The notes beneath the pieces are model-generated. The model searched no databases. It saw only the letters and a program-made list of their open reading frames with translations, and was not told where the DNA came from. This document shows, one piece after another, positions 1,735-14,125 of a stretch of 19,102 bases of DNA (position 1 is its first letter; each line of letters starts with the position of its first letter). Location: positions 27,994-47,095 of the forward strand of contig JBBIOR010000008.1 in NCBI GenBank assembly GCA_037443265.1, in the 5' to 3' direction. This DNA comes from Candidatus Fraserbacteria bacterium (GTDB lineage Bacteria > Bipolaricaulota > Bipolaricaulia > RBG-16-55-9). The translations under genes were made by a program, and so were the position numbers.

Positions 1735-2562
1735 CTAGGCCGCGGACTGCCACCCCAATCTGAAGCGGCATGCGTGCCTAAGCGCAAGCGCCAGCCGCTC
1801 GACCTCGCTCTTCATCCTCTGTCTGCATCCCAGATGCTCTTCTATGAGCTTAATGAGAGCACTCCCCACAATCACCCCATCTGCACCAGCTCGCAGAAGA
1901 GACCACACCTGCTCCGGCCGGCTTATGCCAAATCCCACAAGCAACGGAAGCCCAGTAAGCCCCCGAATCCGCTTTATGGTCTCGATAGTCCTTGGCTCGA
2001 GCTCATCCCGCGCCCCGGTCACCCCCAAGACGGAGACGACGTAAATGAAAGCCTTCGAGTTTCTGATGATTTTGCGCAGCCGCCTCCCTGGCGTCGTGGG
2101 CGCAGCCAGGAAGATCTGAGCTAGGCCCTCTTCACAAGCGGCAGAGAGGACCGGAGCCGACTCTTCTATGGGAAGATCGGCAATAAGAAGGCTATCGACG
2201 CCCGCCTCAGCCACCTGCCCACAGAAATCTTCCACACCCCGGCCATAGACGAGATTATAATACGTGAGAAGGCCAATGGGGATCTCTCCATTCTGCTCGC
2301 GCACCCTTCGGATCAGCTCGAAGGCCCTGTCAGGAGTGATGCCGCTCTCTAGGGCGCGCTGGCTGGCTCGCTGAATCGTGGGCCCATCCGCGATCGGATC
2401 AGAGAACGGCAGCCCCAGCTCCAGCATGTCTGCGCCCGAATCCATGAGGACCTTTATGATATCCAGCGAGGTCTCATAATCCGGGTCGCCCAGGACGACA
2501 AAGGGCACAAAAGCTCCGCATCCCTCCCCGCGTAGCTTCTGAAAGATTTTATAGCGCTCCAT
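1735..2562 (-). CDS. trpA: Tryptophan synthase alpha subunit
   Basis: [39 protein letters not shown] motifs. Confidence 0.98.
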
Positions 2563-3745
2563 GGAGAACTCTTTCCACCTCGAAGAGATCTTTGTCTCCT
2601 CGGCCGCTCAGATTGACGATGATGATCTCGTCTCTTCTAGCGCTCCCGGCCAGCTTGAGCGCATAAGCCAGCGCATGAGCGGACTCCAAGGCCGGAATGA
2701 TCCCCTCCACTTTTGAGAGAATCTGAAAGGCCTCCAGGGCTTCTTCATCTGTGACGGAGACGTATTGCACCCGGCCGATCTCGCGCAGGAAGGCGTGTTC
2801 CGGCCCGACAGCCGGATAGTCCAGCCCGGCGGCGATCGAATGGGTGTTTAAAATCTGGCCGTGCTCATCTTGCAGCACATACGTGAGCGTCCCGTGGAGC
2901 ACCCCCGGCCGGCCCCGCTTAGGATCTCCAAACCGCGAGGCGTGCCGGCCCGTCTTAAGCCCCAAGCCGCCTGCCTCCACGCCGATCAGCTCCACGCGCT
3001 CCGCGAGAAATTCTTTGAAGATCCCGATGGCGTTCGACCCTCCTCCTACGCAAGCAATGATCGCCTGCGGCAGCTTCCCTTCCTCCTCTAGGATCTGCTC
3101 TTTGGTCTCACGGCCAATAATAGACTGAAAGAAGGCCACCATCTCCGGATAGGGGTGCGGCCCCAGGACAGATCCCAGAAGATAATGCGTGTGTTCGACG
3201 CTCTTCGTCCAGTCTCTTAGAGCTTCGTTTATGGCATCTTTAAGGGTCTGGGAGCCGCCGTCTACCGGGATCACTTCAGCCCCTAGAAGCCTCATGCGGA
3301 AGACGTTGATCCTCTGGCGCTCCATGTCTCTTCTACCCATGTAGATCTCGGTCTTGAGGCCCAGCTTAGCCCCGGCGGTGGCGGTGGCCACGCCGTGCTG
3401 GCCCGCCCCGGTCTCCGCGATGAGGCGCCTCTTGCCCATGCGCTTGGCCAGAAGAGCTTGCCCCAGGGCGTTGTTGATCTTGTGAGCTCCCGTGTGCGCC
3501 AAGTCTTCCCGTTTGAGATAGATCTTGCCACCGTATCTTCGGCTTAGATTTTGCGCAAACGTCAAGGGCGTGGGTCGACCGGCATACCGGCGCAAGAGAC
3601 CCTCAAACTCTTCCTTAAAGCTCTTATCGCTCTTGGCCCTATGAAACTTGCGGGCGAGCTCTTCGAGGGCGAACATCAACGTCTCCGGCACGAAGGTGCC
3701 GCCGTAGTTTCCGTACCGGCCTCTCGGGTCTGAGTAGGGCTTCAT
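2549..3745 (-). CDS. trpB: Tryptophan synthase beta subunit
   Basis: [16 protein letters not shown] (PLP lysine), [28 protein letters not shown]. Confidence 0.99.
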
Positions 3746-4515
3746 AGCTCTCCTAGAAGCTCCTTGACTTTGCTCGCTGGATCTTGAGCTTTCAAGATGG
3801 AGGTGCCTACGAGCACTCCGCGGGCTCCCGTGCTTTGAAGATAGAGCACATCGCCACGGGTCAAGACGCCGCTCTCGCTTAGGACTGGCCGATCAGCCCG
3901 CTCCTGTGAAAGAATTCTTTCTGTAACGGAGAGATCCACCGTCAGAGTCTTAAGATTTCTGTTGTTGATCCCGATGATGTCCGTCTCCGTCTCTTTCGCT
4001 TTGATGAACTCTTCCAGGGAGAAGACTTCTAAGACGGTCTCAAGTCCTAGCTCGTGGGCGTATGAGATCATCTCTTTTAGAGGGAGCTGCGTCAGCCCCT
4101 TCTCAAACAGACTCAAGATGAGCAGAGCCGCATCGGCTCCACAGCTCCCTGCCGCCTCTAGCTGCAGGGGGGCGATGACGAAGTCTTTATAGAGCACGGG
4201 CAGGCCATAGCTTTTGGCAATGGAGATGTCCTCCATCTGGCCCGAGAAGACCCGCTTTTCGCACACGATGGCCAGGGCCTGCGCTCCGGCGGCCCAAAGC
4301 TCCTCCACCAAGGGCCCAATCTCGCCCACCCACAGATCCCCCTCCACCGGCGAGCGATGCTCAATGACCGGAATGAGCAAAAAATCCCGAGATGCCATAA
4401 GGCGCCGCAGAGAGATGTGCGGGTAGCGCTGTCTCTTTACGACGTAATGTCCCTCGGCTATGGCTTTCTCGATCTCTGTGCTGATCCCCTCCAGGAAATC
4501 CGTCATAGGGGTCAC
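3742..4515 (-). CDS. trpC: Indole-3-glycerol phosphate synthase, atypical N-terminal active-site motif
   Basis: [36 protein letters not shown] motifs; position in the trp operon. Confidence 0.9.
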
Positions 4516-5543
4516 CTCATCCTTTTGAGGAGCAGCTTAAGTTTCTCATAGGCCGCTCCGCTCTTTAAGCTCTCGTGGGCCAGCATCAGGCCCTCCTCCA
4601 GAGAGCCGGCGGCGCCACTGGCATAGAGCGCGGCCCCAGCATTGAGGAGGAGCATCTCAGAGCGCGCGTCGTGGAGCTTGTTCCGGAGCAACTGTAGGGC
4701 AATCTTTGCGCTCTCTCTGGGAGGGAGCGCCCGAAGCTCATCCGGGTCCGCACGCCGCAGAAAAAACGCCTCCGGCGAGAGCTCATAATGACGGATCTTC
4801 CCATGGAGGAGCTCGCCCACGCGCGTGAGGCCCACATTGGAGAGTTCATCCAGCCCGTCCAGGCCGTAGACGACCAGTGCCCTCTTGATCCCCAGGGCTC
4901 GCAGCACTTCGGGATAGATCTCCACAAGATGGGGGTCAAAGACTCCCATGAGGTGTGCCTGGGCTCCCGCCGGATTGGCCAACGGCCCCAAGAGATTGAA
5001 GATCGTCCGGATGCCCAGGGCCTTCCTTACAGGAGCCGCATGTCTCATGGCCGGATGGAACTTGGGCGCAAATAAGAATCCGATTCCGATCTCCTCGATG
5101 CATCTTTGGACGATGCCGGGCGGGGCCTCCAGATTGAGGCCCAAAGCTTCTAAAAGATCGGCGCTGCCACAGGGGCCGGTGACACTGCGATTGCCGTGCT
5201 TGGCCACCGGCACGCCGGCCCCGGCGACCACAAAGGCCGCCAGCGTCGAGACGTTGAACGTCTTAAGCCGAGCTCCACCGGTGCCACAGACGTCCGTAAG
5301 CAGCCCGCCCATCGCCTGAACTTTGGGATGGATGCGGAGGCTCTTCTCGCGCAGCACTTGGGCACAGGCGACTATCTCTTCGAGCGTCTCGCCCTTGACG
5401 CGCAGCCCCATCAAGAACGCCCCGATCTGCGCAGGATCGCAAGAACCGCTCATCAACTCCCCCATCGCTCCTTTGGCCAGTTCCCCATTCAGATCTTCTC
5501 CCTCTGCCAGCAAAGCGAGGGCCTCGCTGATCTTTTCATTCAT
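4512..5543 (-). CDS. trpD: Anthranilate phosphoribosyltransferase
   Basis: DVCGTGG, TFNVST, VAKHGNRS, GSADLLEALG, RTIFNLLGPLANP, DGLDE. Confidence 0.98.
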   Translation of the reverse strand: MNEKISEALALLAEGEDLNGELAKGAMGELMSGSCDPAQIGAFLMGLRVKGETLEEIVACAQVLREKSLRIHPKVQAMGGLLTDVCGTGGARLKTFNVSTLAAFVVAGAGVPVAKHGNRSVTGPCGSADLLEALGLNLEAPPGIVQRCIEEIGIGFLFAPKFHPAMRHAAPVRKALGIRTIFNLLGPLANPAGAQAHLMGVFDPHLVEIYPEVLRALGIKRALVVYGLDGLDELSNVGLTRVGELLHGKIRHYELSPEAFFLRRADPDELRALPPRESAKIALQLLRNKLHDARSEMLLLNAGAALYASGAAGSLEEGLMLAHESLKSGAAYEKLKLLLKRMR

Positions 5544-6148
5544 GGCACACTCACCCTCCCGCCCCTTAAGATGGCCGGTCCCAGAAAGTTGGAGAGCAGC
5601 CGACGCCCGTATTCTGTCAAGATCGACTCGGGATGAAACTGCACTCCCTCAATGGGCAAGAAGCTGTGGCGAATGCCCATGATCTCGCTCTCTTCAGAGA
5701 TCGCGCTGATCTTAAGACACTTAGGGAGCGAGCGGGGGTCTACGGCCAAGGAGTGATAGCGTGCGGCGCGAAAGCCGTTGGGGATCTTTCGGAATATCCC
5801 CCGGCCATCGTGATAGATCCTAGACGTCTTGCCGTGAAGTATCCGCGTAGCTTGGATAATCTTTCCCCCAAAGACGGCTGCAATGCCCTGATGGCCCAGA
5901 CAGACTCCAAGAGTCGGCACGCGCGGCGAAAGCTCCTTTAAGACGCGCGCACAGAGGCCAAAATCCCGCGCGTTCCCTGGATGCCCCGGACCCGGCGAGA
6001 TCACAATCCGCTCGGGCTTCTGCTCTGCCAGCTGCTCCCACGGCAGCTCATCGTTGCGGAAGACGATGGGCTGCGCTCCCAGTTCGCCCAGATACTGCAC
6101 GAGATTGAAGGTGAAGGAGTCATAGTTATCGATGACTAGGACGCGCAT
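5540..6148 (-). CDS. trpG: Anthranilate synthase component II (glutamine amidotransferase)
   Basis: Start moved to ATG 6148 (MRVLVIDNYDSFTFNL, SD AAGGAGG). Motifs ISPGPG, LGVCLGHQ, RYHSL, GVQFHPES. Confidence 0.97.
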   Translation of the reverse strand: MRVLVIDNYDSFTFNLVQYLGELGAQPIVFRNDELPWEQLAEQKPERIVISPGPGHPGNARDFGLCARVLKELSPRVPTLGVCLGHQGIAAVFGGKIIQATRILHGKTSRIYHDGRGIFRKIPNGFRAARYHSLAVDPRSLPKCLKISAISEESEIMGIRHSFLPIEGVQFHPESILTEYGRRLLSNFLGPAILRGGRVSVP

Positions 6149-7538
6149 GAGGTCGCCTCCTTGAGAGCTGCTCTTAAGGCCGCCAGCTTGCGCTCCGTCT
6201 CCTCCCATTCGCGCTGGGGGACGGAATCATAGACGATCCCCGCCCCAGCTCTTAAGAATAACTTCTCTTTGTCGGCGTAGAGCGTGCGGATGGCAATGGC
6301 CATGTCCAAATTCCCGTTGAGGGAGAGATACCCTACAGCCCCGGCGTACGGCCCGCGGGCCGTCTTCTCCAGCTGGGCGATGATCTCCATGGCTCGAAGC
6401 TTTGGGGCTCCCGTGACGGTGCCCGCGGGGAAGAGCGCAGCGAACGCATCGAGCGCATCAAGATCTCTTCTAAGACGACCCTCCACCCGCGAGACCAGAT
6501 GCTGGACATGACTGAAGCACTCGACGCTTAAAAAATGGGGCACGCGCACGCTGCCGTATTCACTCACCCGGCCGATGTCGTTTCGGGCCAGATCCACGAG
6601 CATGGCGTGCTCCGCCCGTTCCTTCTCATCCGCCAGAAGCTCCTGGCGATAGCGTTCACGCTCCCGTTGCCTACTCCCTAACGGACGCGTCCCCGCAATG
6701 GGATAGGTAATGACGCGTTCGCCTAAGACGGCCACCAGCATCTCCGGGCTGCTGCCCGCGATGATTCGCTCGCCGAAATCTAAAAAGAACATATACGGCG
6801 AAGGGTTGATGCGACGGAGCGCTCGATAGAACGCCAGAAGATCTCCGTCATAGGAGGCAAAAAGCTCGCGTGAGAGCACGGCTTGATAGATCTCACCCGC
6901 GCGGATGGCTTGCCGGATCTGCTCAACGGCTCCTTGGAACTCCTGACGGCAGAGATCTTGGTCGAAGGGGCCAACTCGAAGGCCTTCGACCGGCAGCTCC
7001 GCCCCCTCTAAAGCCTCTTGCACGATGGGGAGGCGATCCTCCCCATATGAGAAGTAATAGGCACGCCCCTGACGATGATCATAGGTGATCCCGTCCAGGA
7101 AGAGCCCCAACTCGAAATCCGGGAAGTTTGAGGGGGGAGAGCGCCGCGGAAACCTCTCCAGATGGCACACAAAGGGGTAACTGAAGTAGCCTACCAGGCC
7201 TCCGGCGTAGCGCTGCAGGGGACCCTCAGCCGAAGCGCTATGATATTGAGCTAGAGTCTCTCTTAAGAACTCCAGCGGGCGACCAAAGCCGGTCTCGACG
7301 CTCCCCGTTTAGCAATAGCCTCCCGGCCTTGAGGGCGAAGAGGGCCACGGGGCTAAAGCCGAGGAAGCTGAACTGGGCCCTCCTCTCTGGAGACGGCGCG
7401 CTCTCTAGAAGAAAGCTGATGCGCGCTCTCTCGCGCAGACGGCGATATAGCTCTAGAGGCTCTAGGGGTGGGATCTCGCAGAAGACGGGGGGAATTTTAG
7501 AAGAAGAACCAAAGATACTCACCCGGCAGAGATCTCAT
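6136..7538 (-). CDS. trpE: Anthranilate synthase component I, encoded in three frames joined by two putative +1 frameshifts (466 aa if both occur)
   Basis: Frame A, 7538-7512: MRSLPGEYL. Frame B, 7510-7286: contains FLLES and FSFLG. Frame C, 7284-6136: contains PLEFLRETL, GGLVGYFSY, NPSPYM, SSPE, PIAGT, EHAMLVDLARND, PAGTVTGAPK, IRT. PIAGT and operon context indicate TrpE rather than PabB. Gene identity is secure; the frameshift mechanism is inferred. Confidence 0.85.
7282..7288 (-). other. Putative +1 frameshift site 2 (CTT TGG T)
   Basis: In-frame CTT (7288-7286) TGG (7285-7283), the only Trp codon in frame B. A +1 slip gives TTT GGT CGC CCG CTG GAG, the frame open to the trpE stop at 6136. 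Confidence 0.65.
7497..7538 (-). CDS. trpE leader / zero-frame ORF MRSLPGEYLWFFF
   Basis: ATG AGA TCT CTG CCG GGT GAG TAT CTT TGG TTC TTC TTC TAA, with SD AAGGAGG (7555-7549) 10 nt upstream and a promoter directly ahead. Confidence 0.8.
   Translation of the reverse strand: MRSLPGEYLWFFF
7508..7524 (-). other. Putative +1 frameshift site 1, prfB-like (GGGTGAG TAT CTT TGG T)
   Basis: SD-like GGTGA(G), TAT spacer, CTT, then TGG; prfB has AGGGGG TAT CTT TGA. A +1 slip enters trpE frame B at GGT 7510. Confidence 0.7.
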
Positions 7539-7562
7539 GGCGGATCATCCTCCTTGGGAGGC

Positions 7563-7591
7563 ATTATAGAAGCACCCTGGGGGAAAGTCAA
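7563..7591 (-). promoter_or_regulatory. sigma70 promoter of the trp operon
   Basis: TTGACT (7591-7586), 17 nt, TATAAT (7568-7563). Predicted start near 7556 leaves a 5' UTR of only about 18 nt. Confidence 0.85.
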
Positions 7592-7612
7592 GGGGCATGA
7601 GCGCGGCCGCCC

Positions 7613-7969
7613 TTAAAACGTGATCACCTGAAAGCCCTGAGCGATCAAGCCTCGCAGGCTGGGATGCTGAGCGTATTCATCTAACAGGGGGATCTTCTTA
7701 GCCAAGAGAGCGTTCTTGACCCCGAAGGCCGCCGCACAATAGCTACACGCCCCGGCTATTTTATCTTGCACGGCCTGATAGAGGGCATGGGCCTTATGGG
7801 AGGGCTCGGCCACTTCGGCCAGCCCCTTGGTCCCGCCACCATCGAAGATGAGCTTCACCTCATCGCGATGCTCCTTGAACTCCTTGGCCGCGATCAACGC
7901 GTTGACCAGGCGCCCCAGGCTCTCATGGGTCTCCGCATCCGCCAGCACGACAAGGGCCAGCTTCGCCAT
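7613..7969 (-). CDS. DsrE/DsrF-like family protein
   Basis: 118 aa; NAL..A, VKLIFDGGG, GACSYCA (CxxC), and GFQVITF C-terminus typical of the DsrE-like fold; purine-rich SD upstream. Confidence 0.75.
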   Translation of the reverse strand: MAKLALVVLADAETHESLGRLVNALIAAKEFKEHRDEVKLIFDGGGTKGLAEVAEPSHKAHALYQAVQDKIAGACSYCAAAFGVKNALLAKKIPLLDEYAQHPSLRGLIAQGFQVITF

Positions 7970-13321: not shown

Positions 13322-13438
13322 CCTCCTGATGCTTTTGAGCCCGCTGAGAGCCTCAGACGCTCTCAGGCGCTTGCCGTACCGTCGCGGAAAAGCAAAGGAA
13401 AAGTGAGATGGGAAGGTTTATTGGCCCCGGAGGGGCCA
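13322..13438 (-). promoter_or_regulatory. Structured leader region of the aroF operon (putative attenuator)
   Basis: Hairpin TGGCCCC-tcc-GGGGCCA (13438-13422); pyrimidine tract 13416-13386; hairpin CTGAGAGC-N7-GCTCTCAG (13366-13344); 13400-13388 can pair with AAAAGCA..AGGAG at the aroF SD. Confidence 0.6.
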
Positions 13439-13510
13439 GAAATAGAAGGCAAAAGAGAAGCTCAAGTAGAAGGCCTGTTGTGGAATCTTACTCAGCTGTA
13501 AGCCCGCCAT
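13418..13510 (-). CDS. Aromatic-rich leader peptide MAGLQLSKIPQQAFYLSFSFAFYFWPLRGQ
   Basis: 30 codons; SD AGAGGAG 8 nt upstream; 5 Phe, 2 Tyr and 1 Trp within codons 14-25; lies between the promoter and aroF. Confidence 0.85.
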   Translation of the reverse strand: MAGLQLSKIPQQAFYLSFSFAFYFWPLRGQ

Positions 13511-13536
13511 CTCTTACGCTCCTCTTGTGAGAGGTC

Positions 13537-13565
13537 ACTATAGCATGATTCACCGACTTTGTCAA
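13537..13565 (-). promoter_or_regulatory. sigma70 promoter of the leader-aroF-tyrA-aroA-aroE-aroC operon
   Basis: TTGACA (13565-13560, overlapping the pheA TGA stop), 17 nt, TATAGT (13542-13537) with extended -10 TGn. Confidence 0.88.
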
Positions 13566-14125
13566 GGCCTGGCTGCGAGCCGAGGGGCAATCACCAAGAA
13601 GCGTGTAGTATTGTCCGGTTGCGAGGAGATTCCTTCTCTCAAGATGATGAGGCCGTAGAGTCGGGCCACCCTCTCCCCAGCGATAGCAGCTCGGTCGAGA
13701 TCTCCTACGGCTTGGATCTGCTTGGCGGCTCCAGCCGTATCATAGAAGGCATGCACCTGGACTCCCAATTGCTCCAGAAAATCCCTACACTGCATAAGAG
13801 CCTGAGGATGAGAGTACACGTGCCGAATCGCTTCCAAGGAACTGCCCGGATTCCCCAAGAGGCAGTGCTCAATTCTTAGGGAGACGGAGTCGAGAATTCT
13901 CACCGGCTGCTTCGCTAAGAGTTCTTGAACTTCAGCAATGACGCCGGTGATCGAGTTCTCGATGGGAATGACAGCCGCTTCTGCCTCCCCTTGGCTTAGC
14001 CGCGCGAAGACCTCCGCAAAGGTGCGGCAGGGCACCGTCTGCGGGCTTGGGCCAAAATACCGTTCGATGGCTTCCTCTCCGTAGGCCCCTGGCTCTCCTT
14101 GAAAGGCAATGCGCTTCTTCCTCAT
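13562..14125 (-). CDS. pheA: Prephenate dehydratase, catalytic domain only (no ACT)
   Basis: IAFQGEPGAYGE, IPIENSITG, YSHPQALMQC, DTAGAA, NTTRFLVI; stops a few residues after the TRF motif. Confidence 0.93.
   Translation of the reverse strand: MRKKRIAFQGEPGAYGEEAIERYFGPSPQTVPCRTFAEVFARLSQGEAEAAVIPIENSITGVIAEVQELLAKQPVRILDSVSLRIEHCLLGNPGSSLEAIRHVYSHPQALMQCRDFLEQLGVQVHAFYDTAGAAKQIQAVGDLDRAAIAGERVARLYGLIILREGISSQPDNTTRFLVIAPRLAARP

Follow-up and report, generated by a model that had tools for sequence, protein, structure and literature searches.

Introduction

How does a bacterium make anthranilate synthase from a trpE gene that is spread over three reading frames? The question is raised by a stretch of 19,102 nucleotides (nt) of Candidatus Fraserbacteria bacterium, phylum Bipolaricaulota (assembly GCA_037443265.1, contig JBBIOR010000008.1, positions 27,994 to 47,095), hereafter the window, in which trpE occupies positions 6136-7538 of the minus strand and changes frame twice, each time at the heptamer CTT TGG T. 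All coordinates given below are positions in the whole window, and the trpE, trp and aro genes discussed lie on its minus strand. Judging from the sequence and its comparison with relatives, the reading that we favor, with a probability of roughly 0.8, is that the expression of trpE depends on programmed +1 frameshifting, the rate of which reflects how much charged tRNA-Trp is available.

To our knowledge, programmed +1 frameshifting is known as a sensor in bacteria essentially from prfB alone, the gene of release factor 2 (RF2), and the shifting that starvation induces at “hungry” codons is treated as an error or as a laboratory tool. A prfB signal combined with a sense codon would make the ribosome a direct meter of one charged tRNA. 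The following sections describe the frames of trpE, the distribution of the signal in related genomes, its relation to prfB, and the alternatives that have to be weighed.

The reading frames of trpE

The first-pass annotation of this DNA, made from the letters alone, had described a three-frame trpE with its start, Shine-Dalgarno (SD) sequence, shift sites, stops and a product of 466 amino acids, and every one of its coordinates was reproduced from the sequence (Table 1); the 1403 nt of the gene, minus 2, correspond to that length. Both frame changes are +1, and CTT TGG T lies within the only stretches in which each of them could occur. The second frame contains a single Trp codon, which is again part of CTT TGG T, and the best matches of the segment that follows are the NCBIfam models of anthranilate synthase component I. 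The third frame, open from about 7300, has no start codon before GTG 7170, which lies past the conserved GGLVGYFSY strand, and it is therefore unlikely that the enzyme is made as a split protein.

The position of the promoter would leave a short 5′ untranslated region only, and a TTGACA/TATAAT layout is likewise found upstream of the leaders of the relatives. The claim that there is no room here for an attenuator or a T-box fits this arrangement, and the Rfam covariance models, run over the whole window, gave no match at the gathering score, and hence no T-box. An attenuator of the trpL type was also considered for trpE and discarded, given that the leader has a single Trp codon, that the enzyme frame opens inside it and that no start codon follows the site.

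Table 1. Features of the trpE locus, in window coordinates.
Feature	Positions	Strand	Basis
Promoter-like elements: TTGACT (7591-7586), 17-nt spacer, TATAAT (7568-7563)	7563-7591	-	read from sequence
Shine-Dalgarno AAGGAGG, 10 nt upstream of the leader ATG	7549-7555	-	sequence
Zero-frame leader open reading frame MRSLPGEYLWFFF plus stop (ATG 7538-7536, stop 7499-7497); predicted product when the shift does not happen	7497-7538	-	
SD-like GGGTGAG; its GGTGA begins 9 nt upstream of CTT, in register with the canonical GGTGATCGN cassette	7518-7524	-	
Putative shift site 1, CTT TGG T: CUU in the P site, UGG in the A site, GGU after +1	7508-7514	-	
Second-frame segment A of trpE: linker plus N-terminal domain, which includes FLLES	7286-7510	-	Pfam PF04715
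Putative shift site 2, CTT TGG T within trpE, context GAC CGG CTT TGG (D-R-L-W)	7282-7288	-	
Stop codon met if site 2 is read unshifted	7238-7240	-	
trpE segment B (third frame): remaining N-domain with GGLVGYFSY and chorismate-binding domain, stop 6138-6136	6136-7284	-	Pfam PF00425
trpG (ATG 6148, 13-nt overlap with the end of trpE), trpD, trpC, trpB, trpA; successive overlaps of 4-14 nt	1735-6148	-	

Reality of the frame breaks

A broken gene may simply be a sequencing or assembly error, or a decaying pseudogene. The genome is a metagenome-assembled draft of 44 contigs, 88% complete, and the stretch was found in one public run only (X1), which may be the source sample and is thus to be taken as a second assembly and not as a second sample; it was not found in X2 and X3, runs of the same study, and there was no RNA run among those listed. 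Nevertheless, a separately assembled contig from X1 covers positions 6900-7700 with 0 differences and 0 gaps at a word depth of 16.6, and identical letters from a second assembly speak to the worry about indels that the first-pass annotation had raised.

The comparison with relatives that the same annotation had asked for gives a result of the same kind. The nearest relative among the genomes compared (G001), a member of a different genus in the same family, with a TrpE that is 69% identical, has the same three-frame trpE, with CTT TGG at both junctions, and the breaks have been kept although the synonymous sites of the two genes are saturated (proportion of synonymous differences, 0.66-0.72). 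In the neighborhood of site 2 the two genomes agree at 28 of 33 bases. The ratio of nonsynonymous to synonymous substitution rates (dN/dS) between the two genomes, with each segment in its own frame, is 0.19 for segment A and 0.10 for segment B, which suggests that the segments between the breaks are under purifying selection. Moreover, trpE is the sole gene of the aromatic and trp cluster of the window that is not intact. A pseudogene is contradicted by these dN/dS values and by the breaks held in common with G001, and an artifact or a decaying gene appears very improbable.

The identity of the two junctions can also be considered as a matter of chance. Counted over both strands, the 1.69 Mb genome contains 124 copies of the heptamer CTTTGGT, or about 3.7e-5 per position, and by our own arithmetic the two stretches of trpE in which a frame change is possible offer about 13 and 24 in-frame positions, respectively. 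The chance of finding CTTTGGT in both stretches is then about 4e-7, and that of finding any common heptamer in both is about 0.02, so that coincidence is an unlikely explanation for CTT TGG T at both junctions.

The leader cassette in the order

The order was represented by 35 genomes. The search for trpE covered 31 genomes and yielded 13 trpE loci, 12 of them tabulated for start codons. The leader cassette is present in all 13, and it ends in [C/G]TT TGG (12 CTT and one GTT). Its layout consists of a TTGACA/TATAAT promoter, an SD of the type GAGGTGATC, an ATG, the leader, CTT TGG and a zero-frame stop 3-18 codons further on; the leader measures 8-20 codons before CTT, mostly nine, and the enzyme lies in the +1 frame. 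The consensus of the trp cassettes is GGTGATCGN CTT TGG (G-D-R-L-W), and the trpE loci show A(A)GGGTGRTCGN CTT TGG.

The bases that vary are informative about the frame. The third base of the CGN codon of the leader frame is variable, a change that is silent in that frame and substitutes an amino acid in the TrpE frame; the base ahead of TTT stays constant, even though the TrpE-frame residue at that point may be I, G, A, D or T; and the base after TGG varies, as expected of the third position of a Gly codon in the +1 frame. This pattern of variation reveals which frame is read on each side of site 1. In eight of the 12 tabulated loci (that of the window included), no start codon occurs in the TrpE frame from this site to the conserved domain, and in the other four there is just a GTG or TTG without SD in the enzyme frame after the site.

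The association with trp genes also emerges from scans that were blind to genes. The pattern GGGTGRTCNNCTTTGG gave 14 matches in the 35 genomes of the order and one in the control; the 14 comprise nine trpE and three trpS cassettes and two chance matches within open reading frames (ORFs). The pattern GGTGATCGNCTTTGG gave 28 matches in the order, while its control gave one in 184 genomes, and 22 of the 28 lie ahead of trpE (4), trpS (17) or a DAHP synthase gene (1), the other six being within ORFs or lacking the architecture. The DAHP synthase gene adjoins the trpE of G001 upstream and has a canonical Trp cassette, MLKGDRLW, fused to it in the +1 frame (L365, G001:C31, ~978-2010).

The cassette on trpS and its reach beyond the order

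Among the 30 trpS loci that were examined, 20 carry the cassette, all of them belonging to families f5 and f3, in which the search for trpE mostly found none; it is absent from the trpS loci of f1, f2 and f4, that of the genome of the window included. The product of the shifted frame is a tryptophan--tRNA ligase by NCBIfam, above the cut-off, and in most genomes with a cassette on trpS a single trpS match was found. From its positions in these genomes, the cassette seems to mark a tryptophan regulon formed by trpE, trpS and DAHP synthase.

Outside the order, 149 genomes of the phylum gave nine matches to one strict pattern (seven in the control) and six to another (one in the control), with no fused cassette, the leader of one genome apart. 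In this genome (G079, of another order; L044, ~1480-1640), the leader MLNPGGPLWRR-stop, with GGGTGGTCCT CTT TGG, stands ahead of a TrpB-like gene that has its own start. The +1 frame of the leader stays open for 31 codons, with a TGG TGG pair among them, and closes ~35 nt short of the SD and GTG that start the TrpB-like gene; this may be a variant in which the coupling depends on the frameshift.

A world-wide genome scan, among the matches listed (at least 120 stretches), contained at least 13 real cassettes, and the eight of these listed cassettes with titles shown belong to Candidatus Bipolaricaulota, Acetothermia or Fraserbacteria. Most of the listed matches outside Bipolaricaulota were set aside as VIGFGGR of primase or VIDFGIAK of protein kinases. 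A scan of metagenomes with TrpE returned 80 loci, the best of them 61% identical and none from the genera labeled g1 and g2; none of the 80 passed a first cassette filter, and a looser look found two only, L260 and L261. In these contigs (~1050-1110) the trpE frame has no start for about 100 codons, ATG GGG TAT AGT CTT TGG lies in the -1 frame, and the ATG is preceded by a hairpin that shows a compensatory change (GGATG..CATCC in one, GGAAG..CTTCC in the other). They may represent a further variant of the cassette outside the order.

Relation to the frameshift signal of prfB

The prfB gene of the same genome reads GGTGATCGC CTT TGA C (..K-A-L-G-D-R-L-stop), and RF2 is encoded in its +1 frame. 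CTT TGA recurs in each of the 29 prfB loci examined in the order, with C after it in 28 and GATCGY before it in 27. Compared in this way, the trp cassette is the RF2 frameshift cassette with one base changed, from UGA to UGG. The mechanism of prfB, based on experiments in E. coli, is described in sections of the recoding review PMC5009743 and of a survey of prfB (10.1101/2024.09.24.614795) as a slip on CUU_U, with an SD stimulator at short spacing and slow decoding in the A site. The first-pass annotation had taken CUU-U to be the P-site slip of prfB, in agreement with these sources and with the CTT TGA of this genome.

The stimulator can be assessed from the complementarity of GGTGATC to the 3′ end of the 16S rRNA of the same genome, whose gene ends in GGATCACCTCCTTTCT. 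The predicted duplex with the anti-SD amounts to -13.1 kcal/mol for prfB and to -12.4 and -13.3 kcal/mol for the cysteine leaders of this genome (see below), which is beyond all of the 128 ordinary in-frame CTT TGG contexts. The order consensus GGTGATCGN likewise has a strong element.

A different way of reading four bases at once would be a special tRNA with an enlarged anticodon loop, specific for CUUU or UGGU. Nothing speaks positively for such a tRNA, which could be missing from a genome that is 88% complete; ARAGORN found 40 ordinary tRNAs in it, including tRNA-Leu(GAG) and one tRNA-Trp, and none of the 40 has an unusual anticodon loop. Since the cassette held in common with prfB points instead to slippage in the P site, quadruplet decoding is scarcely credible.

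A cysteine-codon version of the cassette

If the codon in the A site determines what is sensed, other codons might be found in the same place. The pattern GGTGATCGNCTTT has 90 matches in the order and none in the control. Followed by GT or GC, it has 22 matches, of which 12, in eight genomes, are leaders of the form M-x-G-D-R-L-C. These leaders read GGTGATCGC CTT TGT/TGC, often two or three times in series (L202, L216, L217, L220, L206, L207, L213, L219). In three genomes, two serial Cys cassettes run straight into a cysteine synthase-like protein after two shifts, and other Cys leaders stand ahead of a SelD-related protein of sulfur metabolism, a Cys/Met pyridoxal phosphate enzyme or family-5 solute-binding proteins. 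The genome of the window itself has a double Cys leader at the start of contig C10 (1-270, L202), whose doubly shifted frame ends 20 nt inside a gene of the RimK family of ATP-grasp proteins.

The A-site codon is then UGG on trpE (13 loci), trpS (20) and DAHP synthase (1), UGU or UGC on cysteine and sulfur genes, and UGA on the gene of RF2. That the codon follows the pathway, and that serial cassettes recur, argues that the codon itself is what is sensed. Followed by A, C or T, the same GGTGATCGNCTTT pattern has 29 matches in the order, all of them apparently in-frame V-I-x-F within ORFs, so that this strict pattern revealed no sensor for Phe, Tyr, Ser or Leu in the order. A looser pattern, applied to the genome of the window, marked 37 places, one of which passed the architecture filter (C1:6116); its +1 ORF is not protein-like, and it was dropped.

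Taken together, these distributions incline us, with some reserve, towards the view that Bipolaricaulota have a modular family of translational amino-acid sensors derived from the RF2 cassette. In such a family the A-site codon (UGA, UGG or UGU/UGC) would set whether RF2, Trp-tRNA or Cys-tRNA is sensed, in order to control prfB, the trp regulon (the trpE operon, trpS, DAHP synthase and the TrpB-like gene) or cysteine and sulfur genes, respectively, and cassettes in series would steepen the response.

Proposed mechanism and its alternatives

According to the mechanism that we favor for trpE, the ribosome would start at ATG 7538 on a strong SD and, after a short leader, come to stand with CUU in the P site and UGG in the A site. 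With ample Trp-tRNA, UGG would be decoded fast, the stop codon would be met three codons on, and a 13-residue peptide would result, with trpE untranslated. As Trp-tRNA becomes scarce, the rate of shifting would rise: the peptidyl-tRNA-Leu would re-pair from CUU to UUU, helped by the pairing of the SD-like element with the 16S rRNA, GGU would be read next, and TrpE would be made. In this lineage, the second CUU UGG, within trpE, would be passed likewise, and the overlapping trp genes downstream would probably follow through translational coupling. On trpS the loop would be directly homeostatic, like that of RF2. The first-pass annotation had already proposed that anthranilate synthase is made under Trp limitation, and the comparative evidence points the same way, that is, the conserved breaks, the cassette found throughout the order, the match between codon and pathway, and a leader with no counterpart in Rfam.

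Several observations weigh against this mechanism. The SD-like element at site 1 of this trpE is moderate and weaker than the consensus, with a predicted anti-SD duplex of -8.4 kcal/mol, a value reached by 11% of the 128 ordinary contexts; site 2 lacks such a stimulator, its duplex of -3.2 kcal/mol being reached by 72% of them. The genome shows no avoidance of in-frame CTT TGG (133 cases, observed/expected 1.25), which suggests that the hexamer by itself is not strongly prone to shifting, and a low yield is to be expected of two weak sites placed one after the other. Site 2 was found in two genomes only, that of the window and G001. All 31 tabulated cassettes have a GTG in the enzyme frame, four codons upstream of the site, and their sequence is compatible with initiation or re-initiation there. 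Finally, in 14 of 19 cassette trpS loci (L054-L079), an ATG without SD lies 8-10 codons past the site, near the stop of the leader; it is probably the former start codon and re-initiation may take place at it, so that tryptophanyl-tRNA synthetase could also be made without a shift.

The lack of a stimulator at site 2 and the frequency of in-frame CTT TGG could be accommodated by supposing that the frameshifts are real and needed, and that they occur at a fixed rate, blind to tryptophan, with site 2 being a tolerated insertion of four bases that is rescued by background shifting. The sister genus has GAC CGG GGA or GAA CGC GGT (D/E-R-G) where the window has GAC CGG CTT T GGT, so that site 2 looks like an insertion of CTTT in an ancestor of g1 and g2, and corrective frameshifting is a known class, as described in part of PMC5009743. 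On the other hand, all cassettes seen have an A-site codon that agrees with their pathway, an agreement that a signal for setting a ratio would not need to preserve; site 2, moreover, has persisted while synonymous sites became saturated. We consider shifting at a fixed rate unlikely. As regards site 2 itself, it repeats the last four codons of the cassette (D-R-L-W) and not its SD-like part, and may be read either as added sensitivity or as mere tolerance. The idea that two sites in series would sharpen the response finds its one parallel in the tandem cassettes of the cysteine leaders.

The last two points could be accommodated in another way, if site 1 were no shift site and TrpE started at GTG 7522 within the leader, for example by re-initiation after the leader, only site 2 being shifted. 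The GTG of the 31 cassettes and the ATG near the leader stop at the trpS loci are what such an explanation would draw on. However, the GTG has no SD, whereas the ATG of the leader has a strong one, and the fixed C before TTT, the fixed TGG and the identity with the prfB cassette would be left unexplained. A start at GTG also demands that V-I-x-F be the common N-terminus of five unrelated proteins, and a ribosome stalled at UGG would cover the GTG, giving the control the wrong sign. Since this organism, as site 2 shows, has in any case to shift at CUU UGG, a start at the GTG is improbable, and frameshifting at both sites is retained as the preferred reading.

The surrounding gene cluster

By ORFs and Pfam, the cluster on the minus strand is formed by aroB, aroQ, chorismate mutase, prephenate dehydratase, DAHP synthase, tyrA, aroA, aroE, aroC, a DsrE-like gene, trpE, trpG, trpD, trpC, trpB and trpA. 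No trpF was seen in the window, and the trp cluster as called consists of trpE, G, D, C, B and A. The prephenate dehydratase (13562-14125) has 187 amino acids only and lacks the ACT regulatory domain, and the chorismate mutase is a separate gene of 93 amino acids that overlaps it by 4 nt.

Between the prephenate dehydratase and DAHP synthase genes there is a leader peptide of another kind, MAGLQLSKIPQQAFYLSFSFAFYFWPLRGQ (13418-13510, minus strand), rich in Phe, Tyr and Trp codons, with a promoter at ~13533-13565. At its 3′ end, a GC-rich hairpin (13423-13437) overlaps the last codons and ends just before the stop. Because this leader has a classical appearance, the organism also seems to use ordinary leader-peptide control.

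Implications

If the proposal is correct, frameshifting of this kind would join attenuators, T-boxes and protein repressors as a fourth general means by which bacteria tie the expression of genes to the supply of amino acids. The switch would govern biosynthesis genes and, with them, the tRNA synthetase for the same amino acid, whose gene is essential in the approximately 20 genomes that carry the trpS cassette. It would be about 45 nt long and could probably be re-targeted by the change of one codon, which makes it of interest to synthetic biology, and it would open a search for the same logic with other U-initial codons. The cassette would also explain why gene callers split or truncate these genes in genomes of Bipolaricaulota. 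A cultured member of the phylum has been reported (10.1101/2025.11.21.689855), and the idea is therefore now testable.

Comparison with known systems

The first-pass annotation knew of no trp operon controlled in this way, and full-text literature searches, subscription journals not being covered, likewise found no programmed frameshift that senses Trp or Cys on trpE, trpS or cysK. No such sensor appears in the sections consulted of the 2016 recoding review (PMC5009743) or of the 2024-25 survey of prfB (10.1101/2024.09.24.614795).

The closest likeness is to prfB, with which the trp cassette shares a short zero-frame ORF with SD and ATG, the putative CUU_U slip, an A-site codon that would be decoded slowly and a protein encoded in the +1 frame; an SD-like element that pairs with the 16S 3′ end a few bases before CUU is strong in the order consensus, moderate at site 1 of this trpE and absent at site 2. 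The trp cassette differs in that a sense codon occupies the A site (UGG, or UGU/UGC in the cysteine version), in place of the UGA followed by C that RF2 senses, so that in the strict sense it falls outside the prfB class, and in that the trp cassette would sense a charged tRNA and not a release factor. The sense-codon cassettes are, in addition, placed on biosynthetic and tRNA-synthetase genes, occur two or three in series and, in one case, lie inside a coding region.

Attenuation by trpL and the T-boxes act on the termination of transcription or on initiation by means of alternative RNA structures. The likeness to them would be one of function, given that in those systems, as proposed for the cassette, the decoding of Trp or the charging of tRNA-Trp sets the expression of trp biosynthesis and of trpS. 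The trpE cassette differs in having a single Trp codon, no Rfam match and, in most trpE loci, no separate start for the enzyme.

In yeast, Ty1, ABP140 and EST3 use a +1 shift at CUU followed by a slowly decoded sense codon. As is proposed for the cassette, slow decoding of a sense codon in the A site favors slippage on the CUU of the P site; the differences are that these systems are eukaryotic, that they lack an SD stimulator, and that their slow codon owes its slowness to a rare tRNA, which results in a fixed ratio, and they are not known as amino-acid sensors. Ty1 frameshifting is among the cases mentioned in PMC5009743. In tryptophan-starved human cells, ribosomes change frame at UGG, which the consulted parts of the reports describe as an error of stress, unlike an evolved switch acting in cis (PMC8942854, PMC13751296). 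In E. coli, frameshifting takes place in the leader of an amino-acid operon, pheL (the subject of PMC3082878), and in this respect resembles the present case; it differs in being judged a by-product of attenuation (PMC5009743), and there the shifted frame does not lead into the structural gene. From these comparisons, the trpE system would be mechanically of the prfB kind and functionally an analogue of attenuators and T-boxes, and its sense-codon version appears to be new.

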